Virus record (IMG/VR): IMGVR_UViG_3300043420_000984
Coordinates: 1 to 64,000 of that record
Length of the DNA stretch: 64,000 nucleotides
Origin: a virus
Direction: 5' to 3' (one strand)
The number at the start of each line of letters is the position of its first letter. Position 1 is the stretch's first letter. The notes under the pieces are model-generated. The model was not told the DNA's origin and did not search any database. It worked only from the letters and a program-made list of their open reading frames with translations. Positions 1,752-32,136 of the stretch are shown piece by piece. Made by a program: the position numbers and the translations under genes.

Positions 1752-2381
1752 TCAACCAGTTTTCTTGAGACGTTGACTGATGTAATTATCAGATTTTTTA
1801 TAAAGATTTTTCTTTCTAAAGTCATCAACAAACTGTCTAAAGTATGCTGGCTTCAGTAGATAGATTTCTCTTTTCTTTTCATTTTCATTTGAATAGTGTT
1901 CTGCAATAGTAACTGGTCTACAGATTGTGTTGCCCGCTTTGGTTACTATTGCGCCATCGATATTTAACTTATGAGTTTTATTATAAAACGCTTCATCTAC
2001 ATGGAGACCTTCTGGATATGGTCCGATTTCATAAGTTTCGTAGTGGTGAATTGTTCCATATGGATCATCAAACTCTGCTTCTAATGTTTTATACAGAGTG
2101 TAGTTAGTCATCGGCCAATCATATTGTGCGTTAACCATGTTGTTGGTAATTAGAACTACCCAATCATAAAACGGATCGCCATATGCTTTTCTCGCTAGAG
2201 TATCTGGTCTTTCTCCATCAGTAATGGTATACTTATCGAAGATAACCGCGTAAGAAAATACATCTTCATTAATTCTATATCTACGAAAGAAATTCTTTGC
2301 AGTTACAAAATCCGATTCGGAGAATGGATAACTGATAGGCTTTTCGTCGTATGAAATGTCTGGAACTAGTGAGAAGTACAT
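1752..2381 (-). CDS. gp53: Baseplate wedge protein gp53
   Basis: LysM-like YTITDGERPDTLARKAYGDPFYDWVVLITN; ENEKKREIYLLKP. Confidence 0.92.
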   Translation of the reverse strand: MYFSLVPDISYDEKPISYPFSESDFVTAKNFFRRYRINEDVFSYAVIFDKYTITDGERPDTLARKAYGDPFYDWVVLITNNMVNAQYDWPMTNYTLYKTLEAEFDDPYGTIHHYETYEIGPYPEGLHVDEAFYNKTHKLNIDGAIVTKAGNTICRPVTIAEHYSNENEKKREIYLLKPAYFRQFVDDFRKKNLYKKSDNYISQRLKKTG

Positions 2382-4617: not shown

Positions 4618-5292
4618 GTGTCTATAGATAGTTTCCTGGGTACTATTGCTGCTAACGGCGGGATGTCGTTCAGCAATAACTTTGTTGTGAGATTTCTTAA
4701 CCCACCAATTACTCCTCCTGGTGGTCAAGCTGGAGACTACTTTGAGTATTTTTGTAGCGAAGCACAATTACCAAACACTAATACCGCTCAAGGTCAAATA
4801 AACGGAATATATCTTGGTAGCGGATCGATTCAATACCCACACACCAGAGTATTCACAGAAATTCAGCTTGGATTTTTATGTGATGCTAACATGTCGGCAT
4901 TAAAGTTTCTTCAAGACTGGGTTGATTATATTTTTAACGAGCAAGGAACTAATCAAACTGCAAAGTCACTATCACAAATGCAGTCTCTTGCATATGGACC
5001 AATCAGAGATGAAAATAGAAATGTTCGATTAAAATATAGAGATCAATATGCTTGTAATATTGCAATAACTAAAACTGAAACTGGTCCTAGATCAACAACA
5101 GAAAGGGCACCAATCACATATATCCTAGAGAAAGCATATCCATTTGCTATTGATGCTGTTCCTCTACAGTTTGGATCATCTCAAATTACTCAAGTAACAG
5201 CACAGTTCTCATATATGAGACATTATGTTATTAAAAATGATATCACTTCGAACAGGGGTGATATAAAAGGATTGACAGATTTGTACAAATAG
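4618..5292 (+). CDS. Baseplate tail-tube initiator / tail-tube-like protein (gp54-like)
   Basis: FCSEAQLPN, LEKAYPFAIDAVPLQFG, VTAQFSY; position between gp4 and gp26. Confidence 0.7.
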   Translation: MSIDSFLGTIAANGGMSFSNNFVVRFLNPPITPPGGQAGDYFEYFCSEAQLPNTNTAQGQINGIYLGSGSIQYPHTRVFTEIQLGFLCDANMSALKFLQDWVDYIFNEQGTNQTAKSLSQMQSLAYGPIRDENRNVRLKYRDQYACNIAITKTETGPRSTTERAPITYILEKAYPFAIDAVPLQFGSSQITQVTAQFSYMRHYVIKNDITSNRGDIKGLTDLYK

Positions 5293-6290: not shown

Positions 6291-9178
6291 TGGCACACGG
6301 TTTCCTAGCATATGAACCAGTATCGGGAGAAAGTCCTTTAGTTAACTTTGCCAAGAAAAAGTTAAAAGAAGGACTTAAAGCTTTATGGGGAAAATTCCAA
6401 AAGACTAGTGGATCTTTAGTAAAAAGTTCTGGTGGTCAAGTACAGTATGATGCCAATCCTCAAGGTGTAACAGTAAAAGATGTAACACAACCAGAACCAG
6501 CAGCCAAAAAAATGTTTTCTGGCACAACTGCCAGAGCACTTGGAGCAGGAATTGGATCTATTAGTAAACAAGAACCATCAGCAATTCCAGGTGGAACGAG
6601 TGGAGGAATTGCTACTAGACCTGGAGGATCATTTACTGAATTACCAGGAATTTCTGCTGCTTCTGGTGGATTGAATGCAGAAACATTTTTTAAGCAGGCA
6701 ACAACTGGTGTTGGATCATCTGGTGAGTATTTGTCAAATGCCCAGAGAAGAGAAGCATTTATCAAATCTCGCCAAGAAGGAGTAAAAACTGCAGAAGCTT
6801 CTGCATCTGCTCCTCCAATTTCACCAGATAGTGGAGTTGATATTGTCGCTGCAGTAAACAGAAACACGCAAATGATCGTGTCTCTGGTTGAAGCAGTCAA
6901 GGCACAAACAAAAAATGATAGTAACCTAGTAGAAAAGCAAATTCAGGGTCAAGAAACCTTGATGCTTCGCGCTGCTGCTAGAGATGAAGAGGCATCCTTA
7001 GAACAAGGAAGTGATCTCTCTGGTTTTATGACACCAGAGAATTTTGCAAAAAGAAAAAAGAACGAAGAAAAGAAAGAAACTGGTAGTAAGCTAAAAGAAT
7101 TCTTTAGAGGTCCAAACCCATTCAAAAAGGATGAGGGATGTGGTTGTAGTCCTATCATGCCTGGTCCTGGTGGACGCGGACCAATCCTAGGAGGACCCCC
7201 AGGAGGCGGCGGACTGCCTATCCCAGACTATGTTGATCAGTATCGTGATATGAACCGCCGCCCTGGCAGCAGACTTGGTGGTGGCGCTCCTGTGACCCGT
7301 AGAGCGGGTGGTGGAAGGAGAGCAACCCGTCTTGCCACTAAGATCGGCGGTAAGGGAGCTGGTAAAGCAGTAGCAAAAGGTCTAGGTAAATTTGGTGCTA
7401 AGAGAATTCCAGGATTAGGATTACTTGCTGGTATCGCTTTTGGTGCTGAGAGAGCGATGAAAGGAGATTTTCTAGGTGCTGCTGGAGAAGTTGCTTCTGG
7501 TGCTCTGGGTCCAGCAGGATTTGCTATTGATGCTGGATTAGCAGCAAGAGATGCTGGTCTAACTCCATTTGCGGAAGGTGGTATTGTAACTAGTCCAGTT
7601 GCTGGATTAGTTGGTGAAGCGGGTAACGAAGGTATTTTCCCACTAGAAGGTAAGCGTGGAGAGAAGACATTTAGAATGTTTGGTGAAGGTGTATTCCAGG
7701 CACAGAAAGATAATGATAAAGATTTTGCTAAGTTACAGTCGATGGGACTGAAGCAATATTATGAGAGAGAAGGTGGTTTCAAGAAAATGGGTGAAGGATT
7801 GAAAGGATTTTTTGAAAGCCTTGCTGGTGGTATTGCTTCTTTATTTGGTGGTGCTGCTAATGCGGGAACTCTAGATCAAGCTGGAGATTATCTTGGTGGC
7901 GGAGATTTTTCTGGTAATAGTGCTCAAGATCAGGCGATGAATTATTTCATCAGTCAAGGATTATCTAAGGATCAAGCAGCGGGTATTGTTGGAAACTTGA
8001 TGCAAGAATCTACTGCCGCTCTTGATCCAAAAGCAAATAATGGAACTCACCGTGGAATAGCTCAGTGGGATAAAAATAGATGGGCAAACTTTGAAAAATT
8101 TGCTAAGAAAAAAGGATTAGATGTAAATACTAGAGAAGCACAACTCCAGTGGATTATGGAAGAAATGAGAACTGGTGATGGTGGACTTGGTATTGAGAGA
8201 TTCAAGAAAACTAAAACTGCGGCAGAAGCAGCTGCTCTATTTGTAAAAGACTATGAAAGATCTGGAGAAAAACCAGGACAAGCTGGATATGATGCAAGAA
8301 TTAGAAATGCTAATACACTCGCAACTAGACAAATAACTGGAGGTGGGGGACCTGGGAGAGGTGGTGGATCTTCATCTGCTTTAGCAAATGCTGCAGCGCG
8401 TTTGAAGGGAATGTCAACAAAAGATAGTCCAGATGGTGGTGAAAATGGTTGTGTCTGGGCTGTAAACAAAGTATATAAAGCTGCTGGAATTACGCCTCCG
8501 TGGGGATCATCTGTGTATGTTCCAGATGCCGAAAAGAAAATGATTGGATCTGGATACCAACAGGTTGGTTATGGCCAGAGACAACCTGGCGATGTTATGG
8601 TAATGTATGATAGACAATCACCACCACAAGCACATATTGGTGTTGTTTTGCCAAATGGTAATATTCTTTCCAATTCGTCAAGTAAAGCAAAATTTGCTTG
8701 GGAAGCTTCTCCAGAAGAATATAATAGGTATTATGGAGCACAGGGAAAAATTTATAGAATGCCTGGTGGAGCTAGTGCTAGTACTATAGCTAGAAATAGA
8801 GGAAATCAATCTACAGCGGCGGCGCCAGCGCAACCATTATCAACAAATGGCAATCCAAACGGCAATCCAAATGCTATGTCTCCTCTATTCCAAAGACCTG
8901 CAGCTAATAAACCTGCTGCAGCAGGAGTAACACCAAGTCCTTTATTTAATATGTCTGCTGCTAACGCAAATACTGGCACACCTATGATGGCAACATCTCA
9001 GCAAGTTGCTATGGCATCTATGAGTGGTGGAGCAGCACCAACTGTTATTAATAACTATTACACAAGTGCTGGTGGTAGTGGCGGTGGAGTAAATCCAAAC
9101 GGTGTTTCTCCTGGTATTGGTATGGAACAAACTGGCACAGCAGTATTCCAAGATCTAAGAATTAGGGCACTAGCATAA
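6290..9178 (+). CDS. Tape-measure/baseplate hub-like protein with phage tail lysozyme and NlpC/P60-CHAP-like domains
   Basis: Gly/Ala-rich; FAEGGIV..GEAG; AAGIVGNLMQES..GIAQW..YERSG (tail lysozyme); GCVWAV..PGD..HIGVV (Cys-His hydrolase). Confidence 0.75.
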   Translation: MAHGFLAYEPVSGESPLVNFAKKKLKEGLKALWGKFQKTSGSLVKSSGGQVQYDANPQGVTVKDVTQPEPAAKKMFSGTTARALGAGIGSISKQEPSAIPGGTSGGIATRPGGSFTELPGISAASGGLNAETFFKQATTGVGSSGEYLSNAQRREAFIKSRQEGVKTAEASASAPPISPDSGVDIVAAVNRNTQMIVSLVEAVKAQTKNDSNLVEKQIQGQETLMLRAAARDEEASLEQGSDLSGFMTPENFAKRKKNEEKKETGSKLKEFFRGPNPFKKDEGCGCSPIMPGPGGRGPILGGPPGGGGLPIPDYVDQYRDMNRRPGSRLGGGAPVTRRAGGGRRATRLATKIGGKGAGKAVAKGLGKFGAKRIPGLGLLAGIAFGAERAMKGDFLGAAGEVASGALGPAGFAIDAGLAARDAGLTPFAEGGIVTSPVAGLVGEAGNEGIFPLEGKRGEKTFRMFGEGVFQAQKDNDKDFAKLQSMGLKQYYEREGGFKKMGEGLKGFFESLAGGIASLFGGAANAGTLDQAGDYLGGGDFSGNSAQDQAMNYFISQGLSKDQAAGIVGNLMQESTAALDPKANNGTHRGIAQWDKNRWANFEKFAKKKGLDVNTREAQLQWIMEEMRTGDGGLGIERFKKTKTAAEAAALFVKDYERSGEKPGQAGYDARIRNANTLATRQITGGGGPGRGGGSSSALANAAARLKGMSTKDSPDGGENGCVWAVNKVYKAAGITPPWGSSVYVPDAEKKMIGSGYQQVGYGQRQPGDVMVMYDRQSPPQAHIGVVLPNGNILSNSSSKAKFAWEASPEEYNRYYGAQGKIYRMPGGASASTIARNRGNQSTAAAPAQPLSTNGNPNGNPNAMSPLFQRPAANKPAAAGVTPSPLFNMSAANANTGTPMMATSQQVAMASMSGGAAPTVINNYYTSAGGSGGGVNPNGVSPGIGMEQTGTAVFQDLRIRALA

Positions 9179-17373: not shown

Positions 17374-17376
17374 TCT

Positions 17377-17450
17377 GGGGAATTAGCTCAGTTGGTAGTA
17401 GCACTTGCTTTGCAAGCAAGATGTCATCGGTTCGAGTCCGATATTCTCCA
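17377..17450 (+). tRNA. tRNA-Ala(UGC)
   Basis: G3:U70; cttgc-TTTGCAA-gcaag. Confidence 0.93.
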
Positions 17451-17473
17451 TTGAGAGGCGACGGTCTCTCAAA

Positions 17474-17657
17474 GGGTGTGACAGAATAATCCTATGCGGT
17501 CATGCACGGGATAATGTATATTAGGATAGGGGTGGTGCCCGCTGTAATACTGGGAGACCAGAGTTGCAGAATCCAATACCAAGGAATCCGAAAGTTCTAG
17601 GAAACGTTACTATCAGTGCGACCTCCTAGTTGTGAGTATGATAGAATCTCACCACCC
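17474..17657 (+). ncRNA. Probable manA RNA motif
   Basis: ~185 nt closed by gggtg/caccc, several internal hairpins, between tRNAs; size, context and recalled sequence fit the cyanophage manA motif. Confidence 0.6.
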
Positions 17658-17667
17658 ACAAACACAT

Positions 17668-19708: not shown

Positions 19709-19820
19709 CTATGGTGAACCTTAGTCCATCTGAGGAAGAAAGTTTTAGGATCTAGTCAATCCATAAAGACAAGTATTCCGATAAGGAGAATAAAGGTAGG
19801 GGGATGACTACCCTCTTTAT

Positions 19821-19903
19821 GGAAGATTGGCAGAGTGGTTAATGCAGCGGTTTGCTAAACCGTGAGGGTAAAACCTCCGTTGGTTCGAATCCAACATCTT
19901 CCG
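19821..19903 (+). tRNA. tRNA-Ser(GCU)
   Basis: gcggt-TTGCTAA-accgt; gagg/cctc variable arm; G73. Confidence 0.92.
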
Positions 19904-19907
19904 CCTT

Positions 19908-20041
19908 GGAGGTTACGGGTCGGGTAGGCGGTTCAATTCCGTCGTCGAGTGGTCTCGGATGGGGTTCGATTCCCCTTGGAGTATGGCTACTAAAAACGAC
20001 TAGCGCAAGTCGCCCTGTGGGTTCAACTCCCACAACCTCCA
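19908..20041 (+). ncRNA. 134-nt tRNA-like RNA with acceptor stem and three T-loop hairpins
   Basis: ggaggtt/aacctcc-A; ggcgg-TTCAATT-ccgtc, gggg-TTCGATT-cccc, gtggg-TTCAACT-cccac; no canonical D/anticodon arm. Confidence 0.75.
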
Positions 20042-20045
20042 ATTT

Positions 20046-20117
20046 GGCAGTGTAGTTCAGTGGTAGAACAAGAGATTCATACCCTCTATGTCGGTAGTTC
20101 AATTCTACCCACTGCCT
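20046..20117 (+). tRNA. tRNA with CAU anticodon (third copy, atypical)
   Basis: ggcagtg/cactgcc; agaga-TTCATAC-cctct (A31:C39 mismatch). Confidence 0.8.
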
Positions 20118-20655: not shown

Positions 20656-23600
20656 ATGCCATTAACACGTCTGGATAACCTTATCAGCTCAAAAACTGGT
20701 AAGTATCTTTATGTTTCTCCTGATGACTTTAACGCAACTGATGCGTTAGCAAACAGAGGTAATTCACCTATTACACCATTTAAAAGCATCCAGCGTGCAT
20801 TCCTAGAAATCGCAAGATATTCATATCTTCCTGGTTTCGGTAATGACAGATTTGACCAGTTCAGTATTATGCTGATGCCTGGTATTCACTATATTGATAA
20901 CCGTCCTGGTCTGGTAGATACCAGTGGTATTGATGTATTTGGATTTGATCAAGCACTAAATTCTTGGACTGACAACTCGATCCTAGATATTTCTAATCCC
21001 GATAACGTCCTCTACAAGTTCAACAATACTGAGGGTGGTGCTATCATCCCTCGTGGTTCATCGCTTGTTGGTTATGACCTACGTAGAACAACAATCAGAC
21101 CACTCTACGTTCCAGATCCTGCATCAGTAACTGTTCCTCGTTCTGCAATTTTCAACGTAACTGGTGGTTGTTACTTCTGGCAGTTTACCATCAAAGATGG
21201 TCAAACAACTTCAGAATCTCCTCTATATGACAATACACAAGGCACAGGTCTTGTTTATTATGATCCAAATGACTTTACTAAGTTAACTGCTCCTAACTAT
21301 TCTCACCACAAACTGACTGTATTCGAATATGCAGATCAGGAAGAGTTGGGTCTATTCTATAGAAAGATTGCTAAGGCATTCTCTGCATATCAGCCTACAA
21401 TTGATGATCCAGGTGAATTTGATTTCAATATTCAAGAGAATAGAATTGTTGGTCCTCTTTCCGACAGTAGAGTTATTGAAAGTCTGAAATTAACAGATGC
21501 AACAACAAAGCCAAGTGTTCCTGCATCTACTTCTGAAATTGAAGTAACTACAAAAGTAGATCATGGATATTTCCAAGGTCAGTTTGTTGCTATTTCTGGA
21601 ACTGAGATTGATAGTGTCCTGGAAGGTGTCTTCCCTATCAAATCTATCGATCAGAACGATCCTAGAAAATTCACTTATGAAGTTCCAATTGTTGTAAGTG
21701 CAATTGGTACAAACTTAGTATCTGGTCAAACAGTTAGTGTTCCTACTTTAGGACAAAACGCACAAACACTTGCAGAAGTAGATAGCGTTGAATCAGCATC
21801 TCCATACGTCTTTAACTGTTCTATTCGTTCTACTTGGGGTATTTGCGGTATCTGGGCTAATGGTCTTAAGGCGACAGGCTTTAAGTCGATGGTTATTGCT
21901 CAGTATACTGGTGTTTCTCTACAGAAAGACGATAGAGCGTTCATTCGTTATGATGAGTATTCTAACACTTGGAACCAAGCATCTCTAACTGATGCTTTTG
22001 CTACTGTTCCTTATCACACTAAGGGTGATAGCTACTGGAAAGATGATTGGAGAAACTTCCACGTTCGCGCTTCGGAAGATGCATTCATTCAGAACGTTTC
22101 GATCTTCGCTGTTGGTTTCGCTGATCACTTCCTAATGGAGAGTGGTGGTGACATGTCGATCACCAACTCTAACTCCAACTTTGGTAACACCTCTCTACAT
22201 GCTATTGGTTTCAAAGGATTTGCCTTCAACCAAGACAAGGGTGGTTATATTACCGACATTATTCCACCACAGAAAATTGCTGAAGGATCTGCAAATACAA
22301 AACGAGTACAATATTATACTATTGATATCCAAGGAACCATCAAGGATAATAACAACTACACAAAATTGTTCTTAGGAAGTGATAGTGTAATCACTCCCAT
22401 CGACAGACCATCTGTGACTATTCAGGGTTATAGACTTGGATCTAAAACTGATGAAAAATTATTTGTTACTTTAGACCCAGCTTCTCCTGGTGGACCAGAA
22501 GAATTTAACGCAACCTTAGAACCAACAGGATTTGTAAAGTATATTGCCAGTGCCAGCATTTTAAATCCATCTGGAATTGCAATTAACAATATCTATGCTG
22601 ATGCTGCTAATTTAATCCAGAATAATCGCAGAATGATCCAGGAGGAGGTATTTGGATATATCTTTGAGAAGTATCCAAGACTTCAGAATATCCCATATGT
22701 AAATCCTGGTAGAGATCCAGATGCAAATCGTTTCTATGATGCAAGAGATTTAATTATTGCAAATCGCCAATATATTATTACTCAAGCTCAAGTTGAAACT
22801 CTAGCTGCGTATCCAACTACGAGTATTACTTTGTTTGATATTGGTGAAATAGTTGATGCTATTGCAGAAGATTTGAGAGATGGTGGTAACTTTAATACTA
22901 TTGAAAAAGTAAAAGAATATTTTAGTGGATCTGGTAATCTATCTTCTTTCCTTGGTTTTGAGGCGGAAGCTATATTTGCATTCAATAGAACTCGTGATCT
23001 ATGCAAACTTGCAATTGCAAACCTTCTTCCAAATAAAGCTTATCTATATGATCCAGATCCAAACAGTGAGATTGCTGGGTATGTACTTAGTAGAAATGGA
23101 ATTACTACTGCTGGATATACTGGATCGGAAGCGGAGGAACTGTCTTTAACAACAAATGGAGTTACTGTTGATGTAGCTAACAAAGTAGATCCAGCTGGAA
23201 GATTTAAAGATGCTAGTAACTTAATTTCAGCTAATAAAGATTTTATTGTTGATAATGCATTGGCGGAGATTGGTGTTTATCATCCTGACTTTTTCTTCCC
23301 AAATGATCCGCAAACCACAGCAGATTCTAGATTTGCTGATGCATATCGTTTAATTCGTCGTAATAGAGAAGAAATTCAAAATGCTGCTATTGCTGCTATT
23401 CTAACAAACTATCCAACATTCGTATTTCCAAATGGATCTACAGATAAGTGTCGCAGAGATATTGGTTATCTGATTGATTCTATTGCTTTAGATATTTTTC
23501 TTGGTGGAAATGAATATACAATCAAGTTCACCAGAAAGTATTTTGATGCACTTGGCAATCCAATTTCTGATGGTTTATCTGGTGAAGAAGCTCAAAGCAT

Positions 23601-26600
23601 TTATGGATTTAATGCTGCTAGAGATGCAATGATGCTAGCAGTGTCTAATCAATTGACTTATAAAGATGATACAATTACTGCTGGAGAATCTGAGTATGGA
23701 GACGGAAATGGTGTCGTTCCAAATACCAATCCAACAGCATGTGCTGACGTTCAAAATGCTATTTCCACATTAACCTCTATCGCTACACAAGCTATTAGTG
23801 ATGGAAATACAGATTCACTCGATGATTCTGGCAATCCAAATTATGTTATACCAACTTCCAGAACATTACTTGCTGGAGAATCAAAGTGCCGCAGAGACAT
23901 TGGATTTGTTGTTGATGCAATTATCAATGACTTGTGGTTTGGCGGTAATGAGTATATGATTGCTGCAACTAAGGAGTATTTCCTTTACAACGGATCTGCA
24001 CTACTTCCAAATGGAGTATCTGGGGAGATAGAACCATCTGTTACGGCATTTAAGAGAATTGCTGATGCAGTTAATTTATCTATTAATAATCAGACATACG
24101 AAAAAGATCTTACTATTACTTTAGATAATACTGGAGATCCAGTAGTTGTTTCTGATATTCATGCTGATGCTTACAATCTTGTTCTGAGAAACAAAGAGTT
24201 TATTGCTAAAGAAGCATATGAGCGTATGCTTATTGCTTTCCCAACATATACTCCACAATTAACTAATACAGAACAAGATTGTCTTGATGATGTATACAAA
24301 GTCCTTGAGGAGGTAATGTATAACGTTAAGTTTGGTGGTAATCATAGAGCATATGATGCTGCTAATGTTTATGTTACAAATACTTTAAATGGTGAACCTA
24401 TTGAAACGTTTATTGACTCTGAACGAGATGAAGCAGCGTATGTTTTTACTCAAGCTAGAGATATTGCAATCCAAGTATTGAGAAATGAGATCGTAAACCA
24501 AACTGGAAACAATACAATCCCTCTATACATAGACAATACGATTGTACCTGATTGGGAATCGCCAACATGCCAATCTGCAGCTTCTGCTGTTGCAACTTTA
24601 ATGGATATTGTTATCCAAGCGATTGGAAATGATACTGGTGTTGGAAATCTTACTGGAATTTTTAGAACAGAACCAACACAGCCAACTCAATATGTTACTG
24701 GCAATTGTTCTGATGTTCTTTCGTCTGTTGATACTTTAATCAGCATTCTGTGTGATGCAATTTCTGATTATTCACTAAACTCTTTACCATCACTAAGTCA
24801 CGGACAGTGGGATTGTGCTAACGTTCGCTCTGCAATCGAAAACTTATTCGATATTGTAAATGATGCATTGAGAACTTCTTCCTTAGCAGAATTGCCAGAA
24901 GTTAATACTGGTGGTTTTGGTGTAGTTGCAGAGCAATCCAAGTGTTTCCGTGATGTAACATATATTGTTGATGCTATTACAAATGACTTGAGACTTGGTG
25001 GAAATATCAACAGCGTTCAATTTGCGGAAGCTTATTATGTTGGTACACAATTAGAGTATATTGATGGAGAAAAGGTTGAAACTCTAGATGCTTGGGATTA
25101 TGTTGGTCAGATGGCAATCGCAGCGATGCGTAACTTTGATTTCCTTGCTCTAAATTGTCAGACTACTTTTGGAAGTGCTATTGTTGAAGTTGGAGATACT
25201 CGTGGTATTCTTATCGGTATGAGAGTACAGGAATTTGATAATACAGATCCTGTAAATCCTGCTTATGTAAATGGTTTACTACAACCAAATGCTACCGCAA
25301 TCTATAGCAATATTCCACAAGATACATTTGTTAAGAGAATTGTAAGCAACACTGAAATTGAAATTGGTGTTGCCAATTCTAGATTAGATGTTGGAGAAAC
25401 TGTTCCTGCCCTACAGACAAGTACTACTGCTTCTCTTTACTTTACATTTGAAAAGGGACAATGGGCAGATACTCTTCCAACAACTGTATTTGTTGGACCA
25501 GAAAGTAGCAATCCAGATGTTATTCAAGATACAACTGCTTTTTCTCCAGGATCTCCAACCCAGAGAGAATGTGCTGGTACTGCTAATGCTATTACCACTC
25601 TTGTTGAAAATATCACTACAATTATTAGTAGTGGCATTGGAACAGTTGCGCGAGAAGAGCAGACAGTAAACACTGCGCTATTTGCTTCTAGAGCAACAGT
25701 ATTTACTGTTAATGTAACTGGTTATGGATCAACAAATCCACATAACTTTGAAACTGGTACTCCAGTTAGACTAGTTCCACGTCCACGTTTTAATGTTGAT
25801 ACTGGTAAATATGTCGACATCGATAAACGTCTTGTTAGACTTCCAAATGGATTTGAAACAAATAGAACATATTATGTAATTGCTCCAGGAAGAAGAACAC
25901 AACCAGAAAATTACGCTAACACTACATTCTTCAATGGTAGTGATCAAACTAAGTTGATGTTAGCAACATCCAAAGAGAATGCTGCTGCTGGTATTTACAT
26001 TTACTCATCTGAATCTGAAAATATTGATGCGGATGTTGAGATTGACATCTACCAGTTTGTATTGGATGATAGTTATGATCTACACAACTATAAGTGCACT
26101 TTAACTAATACAGTTAATGCTGGCATTCAAACTGATGTACCACACATTTTTGATGTTCCATTCTCATCAACAACTCCTCAAAAAGTATTCTTTAGAGCTA
26201 TTGAGGGTGGGGTATTGCCACTTGTATCTACAACTTATGCAAATGATTCGGATGTTGCGATAGTTGATCCTTTTGATCCAGAAGTTGGAAACATTAACAA
26301 GACAACTGAGTTTTTTGCAAGATATCAAAATGATAAAGTATTTACTATTCACAAAACACATGCAGATGCTATTAATAATGTAAATCCAATCACATTTACA
26401 TCGGGTCAACTTGGAACTTTTGAAGTGTTCTCAAACAAACGCAGAAGTCCAGTTCATTTTGATCCAACATTTGCAGATGGAGTGACAGATAGTGGAAAGT
26501 GGTTCGTCAGATTGAAAGATGAGGGATCTTCTAGTGTACCTGAATCTATCAAGCAAGAAAATATCATGTGGAGGATCCATCAAATTGATTATGCTGATAG

Positions 26601-29600
26601 ACCAAAATCTACAGATACGTGGTTTACACGTCTAGATGATACTCGTGAAGCAAATGAAAGAACATATAAACTACGCTATGTTATCCCTAAGTATCTTGAA
26701 AATGCTAGGGATCCTATCAATGGATTTGTAATTAAGACTAGGACTGATGATACTAGAAAACTTGTACCACAAAAACTATTACTAAAACCAGTTGCTGGAA
26801 CTGTATATGGTGCTAGATTTGAGAATCCAGTTCAAGCTGGAGAATATATTGGATATGATACTACTGATTTTGAAAATCAATCTCTAAATCTAGATTTTGC
26901 TTATGATCCATATAAGAAAGATCTAACTGGATCTGGAATTGAATATCGTGCGTTTGCTAGATTTAACAGCGGAGTTCAAGCAACAATTCAGAGTGGTCGA
27001 TATGTTACTGATAAACTTAATGCAAACATTAAATATCTTGAACTAACTGTCTTTGATCATACAATTGATTCTCTAAATTATCCTGGACTTAGAAATGAAA
27101 ATCTAACAACGGTCAGAATTAATGCACCTCAGGGTGGAGAGTTTGTAACTAATAAAACACAAAGTATTTCGGCAAATGAGGTTGAGTGGTCTGGAAATTC
27201 TTCTGGTATTGCTAATATTCATGGATACTTTAGTGTTGGTGATGAGCACTATCTTATTCTCAAGAGCCTCCGTGGCGGTAAGTTAGAGTATAGTGAATTT
27301 GCTAATACTACTTTCACTCAGGGTAGTGTATTTGCAGATATGGTTGAAGATCAGGATATGGGCAAATCTCTCCCATTGAAGACACTTATTCGTAAGGGAT
27401 ATCCTGAGTATTACTATAAGCAAAATGGCGCGAACGTTTACACTATTACTCCTGGTGATCGTATTCAAGACGATGCTGGTATTGAATACTATGTTGAGAG
27501 TGTTGAAGATGCTGGTGTTATTGAAGATACATTCTACGTCTTTAGTTATGAGACACTGCAGCGTAGAATTGCTGGCCAGCAAGATGGTATTTACTACCTA
27601 AGCTGCCTACGTGGTAATATTTCTCCATTCCCAACTGGTGCTGGTTCTGGCGGCAACTTCAGAAACTTTAAGTTCTCGCAACCAGTTAGCAAACTATATC
27701 CACTAAACTACAAAAACGATCCTCTGTGGTTTAATAAAGCTGGTACAACTCAGGAAGAGAAAGATTATGCTGCAGCATTGATCGATCCACCGCAAACTTA
27801 TTCTGCCGCCGATAACTACATTCATGGACTTGTTACAACAAACGATTACAAGAACTCTGTAACTAGAGAACTTGTTGAAGATTTAATTAACCAACCAGCA
27901 TTCATTCAGAATACTTATTCTGGAGCAACTGCTATCCAAGCACAGACTGGTAATGCTACTTCTGGTTCAGAAGATCGCCGTATTCCTATTGCTGGTGCTA
28001 GTGATGTTTTATCGGATCAGAGATACTATGTTGAACTCCGCAGACCATCGATTGCTCGTGCTGGTAACCACACATTTGAGTATCTTGGTTTCGGTCCAGG
28101 TAACTACTCTACAGGTCTTCCTGCGCGTCAGGAGATCGTCTTAAGTCCCACTGAGGACTTCTATGCTCAAAGTAAGAAACAAGACGCTGGTATTGTCTTC
28201 TACACTGGTCTAAACTCTAACGGTGACCTCTATATTGGTAACCGTAAGATCAACGCTATTACTGGCGAAGAAACATTCTTAGAATCTGCAGTTCTTGTAG
28301 AAAGTGAGGATGATAGTGAAGATATTGGAGCACTTGTAACCACTTTTGATACACCTGTAACATTTAATCAAAATATTACAGTTGTTGGTGGAGATGGGTC
28401 ACAGCAAAATACATTCCAGTCTCCAATTGTTGTTTCGGTACAAGACAATAATCTTACAGAGCAAAGAGACGCTTTAATTATTCGTTCTAATGTATCTTCT
28501 GTTGATCCAGTAACTGGATTTGAGCAAGATGAAAGTCTTGATAGAACTTCATTTAGACCTCCAACATCTGGTGACATTAAATTAAGCAAGAACAGAATTC
28601 AAGCTGCCGTCTTTGGATTTAATGCTAGAGGAAACGGACAGAGTTATGCAATTCAAACGCATATCACATCTGGAATTCCATCTAATGTGACACCTAATAA
28701 CAATCAACTAATTGCTGATGGTGGCAATAGATTATATACAAATCAGTTTGTTTCTTATGGTGGTGTTGCTCCTTCTGCTGGTGATATTTTACTTAAGGGT
28801 ATTGAAGTTGGAAAATCTGGATCTCTTGGATGGATTTACGCAAATTACTATGAAAAGATTGCAGATCAGAGCATCTTTACTATTGAATTTGATGGTTCAA
28901 ATGTTGTTAAGGTTACATTAGTTGACTTCAATAGTGGTCTAGACATTAAGAATGGAGATCTTGGAATTAATTCTGGATCTCAAATTAGAATTAGTAATTA
29001 TCCAGACGCCAGACTAAATCAAATTTGGACTATCTTTAGTCCAAATGGCGATGCGTTTGATCCAAATAATAACTATTTCCATTTCCAAGTAATTGATCAA
29101 ATTTCACTATCAACTTTGAATTGGTTGACTGATATTATTTCTCCTGTTCTTCCTGGAGCTCCATCACCAACCATAGAATTTTCCAATTCTAGTTGGAAAG
29201 AAGTTGGAGTTATTGGTGCAGAAGCAATAAGAACTGAGACTGAAACTATTGGTGATTACAAAGTCGGTATCAATACTATTGCTCGTACTCCACATAGTTC
29301 TACTCAGAAGGCATTTATCGATGAATATGCTGAGCCAAGAGCAAATCTTGATATTGTAGGTAACGTCTTCATCAGCGGTACTAAGTTTAACTCATATCTA
29401 TCTGAAACTACAACAATTAAGACAGAAACAAATGATGATAACGCTCTGATTGTTGGTGGAGATAGTCTTGATCCCGATAGCAAGGCAACTCTGAGAGTGA
29501 TGACCACAAATGGTGGTAGATTTGGAATTAATACTGCAGTTGTTGATAATATAAATCCACAGAACGTTCTTGATAAGAACTTAGTTGTCGTTGGAAATGG

Positions 29601-32136
29601 TAGAATTACTAGTAACTTCGAAGTCAAAGGAGATTTGGAAGTTAATGGTGGGGATATTACAACAACGTCTAACACGTTTAACTTAGTCAACAATACTGCA
29701 AATATTCTCAATATTGCAGGCGAGGGACAAGTACTTAGCATTGGAAATAATACTGCAGTTGCTCAAAACATTAATATTGGAAATAATACTCCTAATCAAG
29801 TAGTTCAAATTGGTGGAGCTGCAACAGATACAACTCTTAGAATTCACAGAAATTCTACACAAGCTGTTGTTGATATTGCTAGTGTGAGGGATACAAACCC
29901 TGGAAACACCTGCGAAATTACAATTGGTGGTGCTTGGAGTAATACAGCATCGTTTACTCAAATTGGAACAAGACAAACACTAATTGCTGGAGACCTTGAG
30001 ATTGGTACTAAGTTTGCCCCAGGAACAAGTCAAGCAAGAATATTCGCTCAGACAAGAACTGTAAATTTATTTGACGGAGACCAAACAAACACTGTAAATC
30101 TTGCAACAAATGCAACAGCATTCACTCTTGGATCTACTGGTGGTAGTACTACTATACGAAACACTCTCAATGTTCTTGCTTCTGCTGTTGTTGAAGCAAA
30201 TATTATTATTAACGGTGGATTAAATGCTGGAATTATTGAAATTGAGAGAGGTAGATTTGCAACATCTGTTGTTCCACATAATGTAGGAAGTGTTGAAAAT
30301 TCTAATATTGACTTTTATCAATATGATGATACTGGAAAGTTAATTGATACTGGTGGTGTTTCTTTCTGGGGTTCTACTGCTTTCTTACTTGCTGGTGGTC
30401 AAATTGCTGGTATTGATAATATTACAAATGATGGTGGTGAAAATAGAATTCCTGGAACTTATAGTTTTATTAATGCTACTGGTGGTACTGGAAGTGGAGC
30501 GACATTTACTGTTTTAATTAGATTTGACAAGACTTTCGAAATTACAATTGAAAGTCCTGGATCTGGTTACACAGATAACGATCTGCTTACTATCACCAAC
30601 AATCAACTTGGTGGAGGATCTGGCGGTGGAGATCTGACTTTTGAGATAAATGGAACTAACGATGCTGGCACTAATTACTTCTTGCCAATTACAACACCAT
30701 CTCAATTAGATTTCCAAGTTGGTGATCTTTTATTGATTGATAGAGCAAATGAAGCATCTCCTGATATTGTTGGTAGTGGTGGAAATGAGGTTACTGGACT
30801 TAGAGATGAATCTAAGAGTGAAATTGTTAGGGTTGTTGGACTTGCAAACCTAAGCAATCCTTATGATCCACTTGGTTACAGACTGATTGTTTCTAGAGGT
30901 CAGGAAGGAACTCAAGTAAGAATAGATCACCCAGATAACTGTGTTATTGCAAGACTGATTAAACAGTCAAATGCAAGCTTTATCACTGGTGCTGATTTGG
31001 ATCTTGATGGAAATCTAGATGTTCCATCTTCTGGTATCAGCAATTCTCCTCTTAATGTTAGAATTGGTGTTGCTGAGTTTGGTGGAGTAATTACAACTAG
31101 AGATTATCTTAGACTTTCTGGATCTGAATTTGTTAGAGTTGCAAGTCTAATTTCTACAACTCCACAATCTTTAATTATTAATGATGGTGGACTTCCAGCT
31201 GCTGAAGTATTTAAAGTTGAATCAACAACAGGTGATACTTATATCTTCGGTGATATTAAATCTGGTTCTGGATTTAACAAGTTCGTGGTTGATTCCGCAA
31301 CTGGTAACACAAACATCGCTGGAACTCTAACCACTGAAAATACACTAAAGATCAATGGTTCTACGATTGTAAATACTCAGTTCTTCACGATCACAAATGG
31401 TGGATCTACTGGAGTTCCATTGAGAACTACTTTCCAAGTTGATACTGCAACTGGAGATCTGACAATTAATGGCGGTAATTTTAACATTTTTGGTACAGAT
31501 GGAACAACACCAAGACTAACATTTAATAATTCTTCTGGTGACTTTACAACATATGGATCATTCTCCGCTCTTGGAACTGGTCCGAGCACATTTGGTGGCG
31601 ATATAGTTGTTGCTGGGGATGCTTATATCAATGGTGGTGATTTATCAATCACTTCCGATGATGATGAAATCTTTAGTGTTTCTAATGACGGGGCAGTTAA
31701 GATTGCTGGAATTAATAATTACTTTACTAGAACTGGTGGTCCTAAGTGGGAGTATATTTCTGATACTACTATTACTGCTCAGGCAAATGTAAATTATTTT
31801 GTAAATTCTACTGGTAATACTTTATTCAGACTACCACAAAATCCATTAATTGGTGATACAATTCGCATTATAGATATTAGTGGTAATCTAACATATAATC
31901 TAAGTCTAGTAGTAAGAGCACCAGATAATGTAAGAGTTCAGGGAAGTTCTACAAACACAGCAAGAAGTCTCACTAGTGGAGTTCCAGTAAATAGCTTTAT
32001 TGGATATAATGGCGGTGAACTTGTAGTACAAACTCCATATGCTGCTTTTGGTTTAGTATATGCTGGATCTTCAACTCCAGACGGAAATCCTGGTGTTCCT
32101 TCTGGGTTAACTGGTTGGTATTTAATGGACGTATAA
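20656..32136 (+). CDS. Giant (3826 aa) virion structural / tail-fibre-like protein
   Basis: MPLTRLDNL..YVSPDD..PFKSIQRA N-terminus as in cyanomyovirus fibres; pectin-lyase-like region; helical KCRRD repeats; Gly/Thr-rich C-terminal beta repeats. Confidence 0.85.
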   Translation: MPLTRLDNLISSKTGKYLYVSPDDFNATDALANRGNSPITPFKSIQRAFLEIARYSYLPGFGNDRFDQFSIMLMPGIHYIDNRPGLVDTSGIDVFGFDQALNSWTDNSILDISNPDNVLYKFNNTEGGAIIPRGSSLVGYDLRRTTIRPLYVPDPASVTVPRSAIFNVTGGCYFWQFTIKDGQTTSESPLYDNTQGTGLVYYDPNDFTKLTAPNYSHHKLTVFEYADQEELGLFYRKIAKAFSAYQPTIDDPGEFDFNIQENRIVGPLSDSRVIESLKLTDATTKPSVPASTSEIEVTTKVDHGYFQGQFVAISGTEIDSVLEGVFPIKSIDQNDPRKFTYEVPIVVSAIGTNLVSGQTVSVPTLGQNAQTLAEVDSVESASPYVFNCSIRSTWGICGIWANGLKATGFKSMVIAQYTGVSLQKDDRAFIRYDEYSNTWNQASLTDAFATVPYHTKGDSYWKDDWRNFHVRASEDAFIQNVSIFAVGFADHFLMESGGDMSITNSNSNFGNTSLHAIGFKGFAFNQDKGGYITDIIPPQKIAEGSANTKRVQYYTIDIQGTIKDNNNYTKLFLGSDSVITPIDRPSVTIQGYRLGSKTDEKLFVTLDPASPGGPEEFNATLEPTGFVKYIASASILNPSGIAINNIYADAANLIQNNRRMIQEEVFGYIFEKYPRLQNIPYVNPGRDPDANRFYDARDLIIANRQYIITQAQVETLAAYPTTSITLFDIGEIVDAIAEDLRDGGNFNTIEKVKEYFSGSGNLSSFLGFEAEAIFAFNRTRDLCKLAIANLLPNKAYLYDPDPNSEIAGYVLSRNGITTAGYTGSEAEELSLTTNGVTVDVANKVDPAGRFKDASNLISANKDFIVDNALAEIGVYHPDFFFPNDPQTTADSRFADAYRLIRRNREEIQNAAIAAILTNYPTFVFPNGSTDKCRRDIGYLIDSIALDIFLGGNEYTIKFTRKYFDALGNPISDGLSGEEAQSIYGFNAARDAMMLAVSNQLTYKDDTITAGESEYGDGNGVVPNTNPTACADVQNAISTLTSIATQAISDGNTDSLDDSGNPNYVIPTSRTLLAGESKCRRDIGFVVDAIINDLWFGGNEYMIAATKEYFLYNGSALLPNGVSGEIEPSVTAFKRIADAVNLSINNQTYEKDLTITLDNTGDPVVVSDIHADAYNLVLRNKEFIAKEAYERMLIAFPTYTPQLTNTEQDCLDDVYKVLEEVMYNVKFGGNHRAYDAANVYVTNTLNGEPIETFIDSERDEAAYVFTQARDIAIQVLRNEIVNQTGNNTIPLYIDNTIVPDWESPTCQSAASAVATLMDIVIQAIGNDTGVGNLTGIFRTEPTQPTQYVTGNCSDVLSSVDTLISILCDAISDYSLNSLPSLSHGQWDCANVRSAIENLFDIVNDALRTSSLAELPEVNTGGFGVVAEQSKCFRDVTYIVDAITNDLRLGGNINSVQFAEAYYVGTQLEYIDGEKVETLDAWDYVGQMAIAAMRNFDFLALNCQTTFGSAIVEVGDTRGILIGMRVQEFDNTDPVNPAYVNGLLQPNATAIYSNIPQDTFVKRIVSNTEIEIGVANSRLDVGETVPALQTSTTASLYFTFEKGQWADTLPTTVFVGPESSNPDVIQDTTAFSPGSPTQRECAGTANAITTLVENITTIISSGIGTVAREEQTVNTALFASRATVFTVNVTGYGSTNPHNFETGTPVRLVPRPRFNVDTGKYVDIDKRLVRLPNGFETNRTYYVIAPGRRTQPENYANTTFFNGSDQTKLMLATSKENAAAGIYIYSSESENIDADVEIDIYQFVLDDSYDLHNYKCTLTNTVNAGIQTDVPHIFDVPFSSTTPQKVFFRAIEGGVLPLVSTTYANDSDVAIVDPFDPEVGNINKTTEFFARYQNDKVFTIHKTHADAINNVNPITFTSGQLGTFEVFSNKRRSPVHFDPTFADGVTDSGKWFVRLKDEGSSSVPESIKQENIMWRIHQIDYADRPKSTDTWFTRLDDTREANERTYKLRYVIPKYLENARDPINGFVIKTRTDDTRKLVPQKLLLKPVAGTVYGARFENPVQAGEYIGYDTTDFENQSLNLDFAYDPYKKDLTGSGIEYRAFARFNSGVQATIQSGRYVTDKLNANIKYLELTVFDHTIDSLNYPGLRNENLTTVRINAPQGGEFVTNKTQSISANEVEWSGNSSGIANIHGYFSVGDEHYLILKSLRGGKLEYSEFANTTFTQGSVFADMVEDQDMGKSLPLKTLIRKGYPEYYYKQNGANVYTITPGDRIQDDAGIEYYVESVEDAGVIEDTFYVFSYETLQRRIAGQQDGIYYLSCLRGNISPFPTGAGSGGNFRNFKFSQPVSKLYPLNYKNDPLWFNKAGTTQEEKDYAAALIDPPQTYSAADNYIHGLVTTNDYKNSVTRELVEDLINQPAFIQNTYSGATAIQAQTGNATSGSEDRRIPIAGASDVLSDQRYYVELRRPSIARAGNHTFEYLGFGPGNYSTGLPARQEIVLSPTEDFYAQSKKQDAGIVFYTGLNSNGDLYIGNRKINAITGEETFLESAVLVESEDDSEDIGALVTTFDTPVTFNQNITVVGGDGSQQNTFQSPIVVSVQDNNLTEQRDALIIRSNVSSVDPVTGFEQDESLDRTSFRPPTSGDIKLSKNRIQAAVFGFNARGNGQSYAIQTHITSGIPSNVTPNNNQLIADGGNRLYTNQFVSYGGVAPSAGDILLKGIEVGKSGSLGWIYANYYEKIADQSIFTIEFDGSNVVKVTLVDFNSGLDIKNGDLGINSGSQIRISNYPDARLNQIWTIFSPNGDAFDPNNNYFHFQVIDQISLSTLNWLTDIISPVLPGAPSPTIEFSNSSWKEVGVIGAEAIRTETETIGDYKVGINTIARTPHSSTQKAFIDEYAEPRANLDIVGNVFISGTKFNSYLSETTTIKTETNDDNALIVGGDSLDPDSKATLRVMTTNGGRFGINTAVVDNINPQNVLDKNLVVVGNGRITSNFEVKGDLEVNGGDITTTSNTFNLVNNTANILNIAGEGQVLSIGNNTAVAQNINIGNNTPNQVVQIGGAATDTTLRIHRNSTQAVVDIASVRDTNPGNTCEITIGGAWSNTASFTQIGTRQTLIAGDLEIGTKFAPGTSQARIFAQTRTVNLFDGDQTNTVNLATNATAFTLGSTGGSTTIRNTLNVLASAVVEANIIINGGLNAGIIEIERGRFATSVVPHNVGSVENSNIDFYQYDDTGKLIDTGGVSFWGSTAFLLAGGQIAGIDNITNDGGENRIPGTYSFINATGGTGSGATFTVLIRFDKTFEITIESPGSGYTDNDLLTITNNQLGGGSGGGDLTFEINGTNDAGTNYFLPITTPSQLDFQVGDLLLIDRANEASPDIVGSGGNEVTGLRDESKSEIVRVVGLANLSNPYDPLGYRLIVSRGQEGTQVRIDHPDNCVIARLIKQSNASFITGADLDLDGNLDVPSSGISNSPLNVRIGVAEFGGVITTRDYLRLSGSEFVRVASLISTTPQSLIINDGGLPAAEVFKVESTTGDTYIFGDIKSGSGFNKFVVDSATGNTNIAGTLTTENTLKINGSTIVNTQFFTITNGGSTGVPLRTTFQVDTATGDLTINGGNFNIFGTDGTTPRLTFNNSSGDFTTYGSFSALGTGPSTFGGDIVVAGDAYINGGDLSITSDDDEIFSVSNDGAVKIAGINNYFTRTGGPKWEYISDTTITAQANVNYFVNSTGNTLFRLPQNPLIGDTIRIIDISGNLTYNLSLVVRAPDNVRVQGSSTNTARSLTSGVPVNSFIGYNGGELVVQTPYAAFGLVYAGSSTPDGNPGVPSGLTGWYLMDV

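Follow-up and report, generated by a model that had tools for sequence, protein, structure and literature searches.

A family of phage RNAs with a tRNA-like acceptor end and three T arms, represented in a cyanophage tRNA cluster

The tRNA clusters of phages are usually read as supplies of ordinary tRNAs that serve codon usage or anti-defence. RNA C and RNA D of phage T4, also known as the species 1 and 2 RNAs and encoded by rnaC and rnaD, are stable RNAs from the T4 tRNA region whose roles are unknown (PMC3014915; PMC9697503), and GOLLD and ROOL are structured phage RNAs, likewise of unknown function, that lie beside tRNA islands (PMC12286853). In its text, a 2023 catalogue of viral RNAs with 10,006 candidates takes up no more than five that are tRNA-like, and these overlap ARAGORN calls (PMC10690425); a full-text literature search returned no description of a tRNA-like phage RNA with several T arms. 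Here we describe a 134-nt element on the plus strand at positions 19908–20041 of a 64,000-nt stretch of viral DNA (the window; positions 1 to 64,000 of IMG/VR virus record IMGVR_UViG_3300043420_000984), where it lies inside a tRNA cluster. The element has a tRNA-like acceptor stem that encloses three T arms, and it is a member of a conserved family of phage RNAs, here called three-T-arm (3T) RNAs. Stable tRNA mimics in phage tRNA clusters are already a known kind of RNA, with RNA C and RNA D of T4 as the closest precedent, whilst the three-T-arm architecture appears to be undescribed.

Seven helices are packed into the 134 nt, and the only positions within them that are not Watson–Crick pairs are two G.U and one U.U. 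The anticodon arm and the D arm of a tRNA are absent and the elbow hairpin, the T arm, is found in three copies. The original prediction for this stretch, made without database searches, had placed here a perfect 7-bp acceptor stem with discriminator A and a canonical T arm, together with two further T-arm hairpins and two smaller ones (CGAG/TGGT/CTCG and CGACT/AGTCG). All of these are present at the positions it gave, its view that such an RNA cannot decode normally is borne out by the structural reading, and one further hairpin that it had missed, H3 (19980–19991), can be added. From the 5' end the parts are as follows.

19908..19914, + strand: acceptor stem, 5' strand GGAGGTT, Watson–Crick paired at 7/7 positions with 20034–20040
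19915..19926, + strand: 5' linker with GG runs, ending in GTA directly before T1
19927..19943, + strand: T1, T-arm hairpin with a 5-bp stem (one G.U) and loop TTCAATT
19945..19958, + strand: H2, hairpin CGAG/TGGT/CTCG, 5 bp, TGGT loop, D-arm-like
19960..19976, + strand: T2, T-arm hairpin with four G–C pairs, a closing U.U and loop TTCGATT
19980..19991, + strand: H3, hairpin AGTA/TGGC/TACT, 4 bp, TGGC loop
19992..19996, + strand: A-rich linker AAAAA, replacing the AATAG that is invariant in the core family (alignment to covariance model R1, below)
19997..20012, + strand: V hairpin CGACT/AGTCG, 5 bp, 6-nt loop, directly upstream of T3
20017..20033, + strand: T3, canonical T arm stacked upon the acceptor stem, with a 5-bp stem and loop TTCAACT
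20034..20041, + strand: acceptor stem, 3' strand AACCTCC, and discriminator A (20041)

CCA is not encoded after the discriminator A20041, and the top of the acceptor stem reads G1–C72, G2–C71 and A3–U70. The V hairpin is placed like the variable arm of a class II tRNA, and the 5' linker, which the R1 match aligns to the conserved 'uuGGuaaaGuaA' linker of the family, may act as a D-loop-like donor of GG. In the folding ensemble of the element the pair probability is 0.99 for T3 and 0.4–1.0 for the acceptor stem. Two T-loop consensus motifs within 38 nt of each other occur twice in the window, both times in or at the 3T element, whereas shuffles of the window give an expectation of 0.00.

The homologue search in phage genomes that had been proposed along with the original prediction was carried out by scanning IMG/VR for patterns of two or three closely spaced T-loop motifs. 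Among the many loci returned, about 20 distinct RNAs have their parts in the same order as the window element. Their lengths are 128–141 nt in the 14 sequences later used for model building and 118–158 nt when variants are included. A family member opens with the 5' strand of a 7-bp acceptor stem and a linker that contains GG and ends in GTA(A). T1 and T2 follow, separated by a small hairpin whose loop is of the TGG type, and after T2 comes another small hairpin with a TGG loop. The conserved AATAG leads to a GC hairpin, behind which CGC, T3, the returning acceptor strand and the discriminator complete the RNA. Apart from AATAG and CGC, every one of these parts is found in the window element, in the family order. 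Of 21 members, 19 begin with G and 18 have A as discriminator, and a T3 loop ending in ...ACTCC, as in the window, is the commonest form. Position 7:66 of the acceptor stem is non-standard in 16 of the 21, mostly A.C, but is a perfect pair in the window. Two shorter variants (L086 and L228; L numbers are our handles for loci) retain three modules and have no V hairpin.

A covariance model, R1, was built from 14 aligned IMG/VR sequences with the window left out and with only the five robust helices annotated. It matches the window with 73.3 bits (E value 1.4e-22), and its positions 1–134 fall exactly on 19908–20041, so that an independently built model reproduces the boundaries first proposed for the element. 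The next matches in the window are adjacent tRNA pairs at 29 bits or less. Training sequences score 102–128 bits, the new members L342 (from a metagenome), L232, L213 and L203 score 51–81 bits, and a partial copy in a Streptomyces genome (L323) reaches 75 bits. In a background set of fetched phage DNA rich in tRNAs and multi-T-loop RNAs, about 2.7 Mb in all, tandem tRNAs score about 41 bits at most, and other classes of multi-T-loop RNA, together with the shorter family variants, up to about 48 bits. The window element is the third-best match outside the training set and stands clearly above this background.

The paired regions of the family bear the marks of compensatory evolution. A MAFFT alignment analysed with RNAalifold has double changes in 16 of 22 predicted pairs. 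The main test employed a model-based alignment of 21 sequences with 24 modelled pairs, in which standard pairs fill 93.7% of the cells, as opposed to 43–58% with slid partners, and compensatory changes are seen in 19 of the 24 pairs; none of 500 shuffles reaches the observed values. Every modelled helix is represented among these changes. The acceptor helix, which is independent of the T-loop anchors, covaries at all seven positions, T1 has double changes in four of its five pairs, and the counterpart of the V hairpin also covaries. T2 closes with a non-standard position in 10 of the 21 members, and with T.T in 7 of the 14 training sequences, comparable to the U.U of the window element. H2, which was left out of the model, forms a GG-loop hairpin with a stem of 4 bp or more in all 20 members examined, with at least ten unrelated stem sequences among them. 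H3 is weaker, in that small TGG-loop hairpins such as CCA/TGG/TGG are present in most members, many of them with 3-bp stems, and in four members it is weak or absent. The helices of the 3T family are under selection.

Carriers of 3T RNAs are diverse uncultured phages of 30–350 kb, including complete genomes with terminal repeats, and the RNAs themselves mostly have a G+C content of 50–67%. Same-strand tRNAs are found near 11 of 20 carrier loci, with gaps down to 2–7 nt, and in L138, L231, L253 and L203 the 3T RNA is 2–14 nt from tRNAs; the Pfam contexts of the carrier loci are mutually unrelated. A BLAST search with the window element and four core members against 50,697 GenBank phage records gave matches of T-arm length or nothing, and no cultured carrier was therefore identified. 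Two metagenome scans gave zero and five matches, of which only L342 is a family member, of the GC-rich type. A scan of genome contigs found the one partial copy, L323 (model positions 20–126), and a sample of 151 Streptomycetaceae genomes searched with strict filters gave a match only in that same genome. The copy, at 1948–2065 (+) of L323 in a Streptomyces sp. chromosome, has three T arms and no outer acceptor stem; its GAATAGG is complementary to the 7 nt after T3, which gives a local acceptor-like closure. Beside the tRNA array of L253 lies a gene (7424–8623, +) for a protein with an ADP-ribosyltransferase-exoenzyme domain.

Genes such as this are invisible to standard tRNA and Rfam annotation. 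ARAGORN, with 20 tRNAs found in the window, makes no call on 19908–20041, as had been anticipated. Rfam 15 at gathering thresholds reports nothing there, the canonical tRNA model RF00005 included, and at E ≤ 10 gives sub-threshold noise only: the tRNA-Sec model reaches 22 bits against a cut-off of 47, the YrlA model (RF02553) 13.6 bits against 69 and on a different stretch (19987–20070), and the only signal of the tmRNA models is a 17-nt, 12-bit match to the T3 arm. The multi-T-arm elements of 19 other loci searched against Rfam are likewise all without a family. The original prediction had set tmRNA aside for want of a G3:U70 pair, rightly so, as pair 3:70 is A–U and neither ARAGORN nor Rfam calls a tmRNA. 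A spliced or nested ordinary tRNA, which it had considered as an alternative, is rejected since no excision leaves a D arm together with a 7-nt anticodon loop. The only candidate for an anticodon arm in the element is a hairpin with a 6-nt loop, which corresponds to tetraloop hairpins in the relatives.

The elbow of a tRNA is formed when G18 and G19 cap its T loop. The 3T element can be read as an acceptor stem enclosing three tandem modules, each of which has a T arm preceded by a loop or hairpin that bears GG. By analogy with other tRNA clusters it would be co-transcribed with the flanking tRNAs, and, as in such clusters and in the T4 precedent, it would be released by RNase P at G19908, trimmed at its 3' side after A20041 and completed by addition of CCA. 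The three conserved GG sites may each cap one T loop, and the result would be a single acceptor/T minihelix that presents three intramolecular tRNA elbows. The molecule is envisaged to act in trans, without decoding, by occupying proteins that read the upper half or the elbow of tRNA, be they enzymes of tRNA processing or modification or host defence enzymes directed at tRNA. Candidate readers of tRNA shape are RNase P, the CCA-adding enzyme, TruB and TrmA, EF-Tu, some synthetases and tRNA-directed toxins. A trans-acting mimic or decoy is favoured because a non-decoding RNA of this form could be read only by factors that recognise tRNA shape, and we give the complete chain, from a functional gene to a three-elbow mimic or decoy, about an even chance of being right. 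A more specific and tentative version, which is possible though improbable, is that 3T RNAs are multivalent elbow mimics in counter-defence, which would soak up host enzymes that attack or disable tRNA by way of its acceptor end or elbow, such as nucleases directed at tRNA or toxins that modify its CCA end, or would titrate T-arm-binding enzymes, with protection of phage translation as the effect. Of the targets named in the original prediction, anticodon nucleases are unlikely ones, because a 3T RNA has no anticodon loop to offer.

Several observations weigh against the mimic or decoy. Two invariants of the core family are missing from the window element, in which AAAAA stands in place of AATAG and CCC in place of the CGC after the V hairpin; departures from them are also seen in L342, with AAAAGG at the AATAG position, and in the short variants L086 and L228. 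Because these core single-stranded motifs differ, the window element is, to judge from its sequence, a divergent subtype of the family. No close relative of the window version was found when IMG/VR was searched with T-loop and hairpin patterns and with each of the two flanking tRNAs, tRNA-Met and tRNA-Ser. It is a singleton among the cyanophages of the collections searched, and selection in the lineage of the window is for this reason not demonstrable. The alignment used for the main covariation test was fitted to the model and is biased towards the modelled structure. RNAfold of the window sequence keeps the acceptor stem, T1, T2, V and T3 but favours cross-pairing of the H2 and H3 strands around T2 (−51.5 kcal/mol, against −45.5 kcal/mol for the comparative structure); H2 is not favoured, H3 is not in the minimum free energy structure, and the folding energy of the whole element is only modestly better than that of shuffles (z −2.0). 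We follow the comparative structure because the H2 and H3 stems vary between members whilst each remains self-complementary, and because cross-pairing of the window type is not evident in L227 and L157, the two members inspected by eye. Clustering of open reading frames (ORFs) from 24 carrier loci revealed no common neighbour protein beyond closely related phages. Finally, the DNA fetched for 8 of the 20 carrier loci contains no tRNA, and tRNA processing is thus not the sole possible route of release.

This last finding bears equally on a different explanation, in which the element acts in cis: the extra elbows would recruit or position RNase P and the 3'-processing enzymes for the neighbouring tRNAs, and the excised RNA would have no role. 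RNase P recognises the tRNA elbow, and the close packing with tRNAs, flush on both sides in the window and within 2–14 nt in four other loci (L138, L231, L253 and L203), is what such an element would need. The tRNA-free carrier loci do not fit this arrangement, related cyanophages process the same tRNA-Ser/tRNA-Met junction without a 3T element, and the conservation of the internal linkers and of the V hairpin exceeds the needs of a spacer, all of which makes a cis-acting role distinctly unlikely. A somewhat better case, though still an unlikely one, can be made for a chargeable tRNA-like acceptor. LeuRS, SerRS and AlaRS do not read the anticodon, and a synthetase of the LeuRS or SerRS type could aminoacylate the element for a non-ribosomal purpose or as a sink. 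The frequency of A73 (18 of 21) and G1 (19 of 21) across the family, the G1–C72, G2–C71 and A3–U70 pairs of the window element, the hairpin directly 5' of T3 as in class II tRNAs and the presence of a class II tRNA-Ser(GGA), which also starts with GGAG, in the corresponding slot of S-PM2 are all consistent with charging. Nevertheless, the free variation of acceptor sequences among family members speaks against a common identity set, the discriminator A is not the G73 of tRNA-Ser, and the ORF clustering found no transferase gene common to the carriers.

The original prediction had also raised a Y-RNA-like molecule, which as a partner of a Ro60/Rsr protein would be comparable to YrlA, an RNA that reportedly mimics tRNA. 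ORFs with a TROVE (Ro60) domain above the Pfam cut-off occur in two of 15 carrier contigs (L253 and L213), and both of these are simply phages with large tRNA arrays; the ORFs lie elsewhere in their genomes and encode 572 and 643 aa (L345, L346). No TROVE gene was found in the 91-kb record of the window (about 48% complete) or in 12 further carrier contigs, seven of which are at least 92% complete, the long Ro-binding stem is absent, and the YrlA model fails to match as described above. TROVE/Ro60 was accordingly rejected as a general partner, and the Y-RNA-like reading, for which there is little support, is highly unlikely. Least probable is that the element is functionless debris, a recombinant or decaying fusion of tRNA fragments arising, for instance, from T-arm-mediated recombination or from stacked attachment (att) sites. 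In its favour, the slot is taken by an ordinary tRNA-Ser(GGA) in relatives such as S-PM2, the motif CCTTGGAG is found just ahead of the element and again behind T2, and no close relative of the window version was found. Yet all seven helices are intact, the independently built family model is matched over its full length with the parts in the same order, and compensatory changes are present in every family helix, including the acceptor stem, which scars of att sites would lack. Debris of this type, a decaying fusion without covariation, had been named from the outset as something that would refute the prediction; homologues exist, their pairs covary as set out above, and this explanation is already largely refuted.

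The window comes from an IMG/VR record of 91 kb that represents a T4-like Synechococcus myovirus, a marine cyanophage. Between 15 and 23 kb it is 78–80% identical to S-WAM2, S-RSM4, S-CAM4 and similar phages, and its likeness to S-PM2 in this region is in the tRNA genes. The 20 tRNA genes called by ARAGORN lie at 15.7–20.5 kb, all on the plus strand, and Rfam adds a manA RNA within the region. The immediate neighbours of the 3T element were called by both ARAGORN and Rfam.

19821..19905, + strand: tRNA-Ser(GCU), upstream neighbour, 2 nt from the 3T element
20046..20117, + strand: tRNA-Met(CAU), downstream neighbour, 4 nt from the 3T element

An ORF on the minus strand at 19839–20102 runs across tRNA genes and was taken as spurious. 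The manA RNA (17452–17662, 100.9 bits in Rfam) begins directly after tRNA-Ala (17376–17451), and in L058 a manA RNA similarly lies flush behind a tRNA. About 170 nt past the last tRNA of the array starts a single ORF of 3826 aa (20656–32136, +).

The slot upstream of tRNA-Met behaves like a cassette site. It holds an ordinary tRNA-Ser(GGA) in S-PM2 and several uncultured relatives, and in other relatives it is empty or contains other non-tRNA elements. The contents seen are tRNA-Ser(GGA), an element of about 84 nt, an element of 110 nt, a two-T-arm RNA and the three-T-arm RNA. The element of about 84 nt, which is closed by GGAC...GTCC and has no T arm, stands directly upstream of tRNA-Met in many related cyanophage contigs (L012, L013, L026, L030, L034, L048, L055, L061, L066, L068–L070 and L075). 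The element of about 110 nt is not a tRNA either and has no Rfam match; in the window it lies between tRNA-Ile and tRNA-Ser (19710–19820), and it recurs nearly unchanged directly upstream of the same tRNA-Met in L016, L028, L031, L045, L051 and L057.

Tandem T arms are not confined to the 3T family, and multi-T-arm tRNA-like RNAs are a wider theme. A two-T-arm tRNA-like family of about 90 nt, with eight distinct sequences and no call by ARAGORN or Rfam, is present in cyanophage tRNA arrays (L017 1875–1964 (−), L052, L058, L173, L108, L114, L158, L166, L172, L184, L192 and L196). It consists of a covarying 7-bp acceptor stem, a CACC/TTGG/GGTG hairpin, a second hairpin, T1, TTGGCAATG and T2, and in L058 it takes the place that the 3T element has in the window, upstream of the same tRNA-Met. 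Upstream of it in L058, and also in L027 and L043, there is a tRNA-shaped gene of about 90 nt with normal acceptor, D and T arms, in which the anticodon stem closes a loop of about 20 nt; this may be an intron or a non-decoding variant. The same 248-kb cyanophage-like contig, L058, has within its tRNA array a permuted tmRNA of the cyanobacterial type (4662–4917, −; 105.8 bits in Rfam). The tRNA arrays of jumbo phages contain a second two-T-arm type without an Rfam match (L002 7065–7160 (−), L132, L164 and L182), and in the L002 type the 3' acceptor strand runs on into GCC(A), so that CCA is encoded in part. A conserved stretch with three T loops is found in prophage-like records (L094 259–354 (−), L154, L193, L201, L208 and others). 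In L094 it lies just downstream of a GOLLD match (529–904) and a tRNA (436–519), and it may belong to GOLLD or be an RNA in its own right. Lastly, a recurrent motif composed of a T arm, CTCG.TGG.CGAGA, TGGTGA and a second T arm (L204, L209, L225, L245, L207, L211, L216, L234, L248, L121 and L199) has no Rfam match and looks like a further class of multi-T-loop RNA.

What sets the 3T family apart is that the tRNA end is kept, the elbow is tripled and decoding is discarded, and selection is therefore on recognition of tRNA shape rather than on translation. If the tentative counter-defence role were true, these RNAs would be anti-defence factors of a new, RNA-based class, and their three intramolecular corners of the D-loop/T-loop type would constitute a new RNA fold. 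At about 130 nt and with some 20 natural variants, they offer a compact object for structural work on T-loop/GG-loop modules and a handle on the host and phage proteins that read tRNA elbows during infection. They also allow the question of the role of RNA C and RNA D of T4, now 50 years old, to be revisited.

Set beside known systems, the 3T element shares with canonical tRNA (RF00005) the acceptor stem, the T arm and the discriminator, but the D arm and the anticodon arm with its 7-nt loop are absent. The resemblance extends further with class II tRNA, as exemplified by the tRNA-Ser(GGA) of S-PM2, which has a 7-bp acceptor stem, a hairpin 5' of the T arm, a position in the array and a GGAG start in common with the element; the differences lie in the missing D stem and anticodon arm, the two extra T arms and a discriminator that is A rather than G. 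In the ...ACTCC ending of its T3 loop the element resembles the T arms of tmRNA (RF00023), although at 134 nt it is too short for one and has neither G3:U70 nor a tag reading frame nor pseudoknots. Like GOLLD and ROOL, it is a structured phage-encoded RNA associated with tRNA islands, but those RNAs are 400–800 nt long, have no acceptor closure and correspond to different models, and no Rfam match is obtained at the 3T element. YrlA and the other bacterial Y RNAs (RF02553) are also non-decoding, also occur in phages and have a tRNA-like domain with an acceptor-like stem, a T arm and a mimic of the D arm; in contrast to the 3T element, they combine a single T arm with a long Ro60-binding stem. 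The closest counterparts remain the products of rnaC and rnaD. R1 gives no match to T4 rnaC (L344 1909–2047) at E ≤ 1, and sequence homology is not detected; rnaC moreover has one T arm instead of three and an imperfect acceptor pairing (5/7). Nevertheless, in rnaC a canonical T arm is followed by an acceptor-like 3' strand, a hairpin stands just before the T arm and TGG-containing motifs are present. Both T4 RNAs are stable non-tRNA RNAs of about 120–140 nt, encoded where the tRNA cluster of T4 ends, and the position of the 3T element within its own tRNA cluster fits this precedent.
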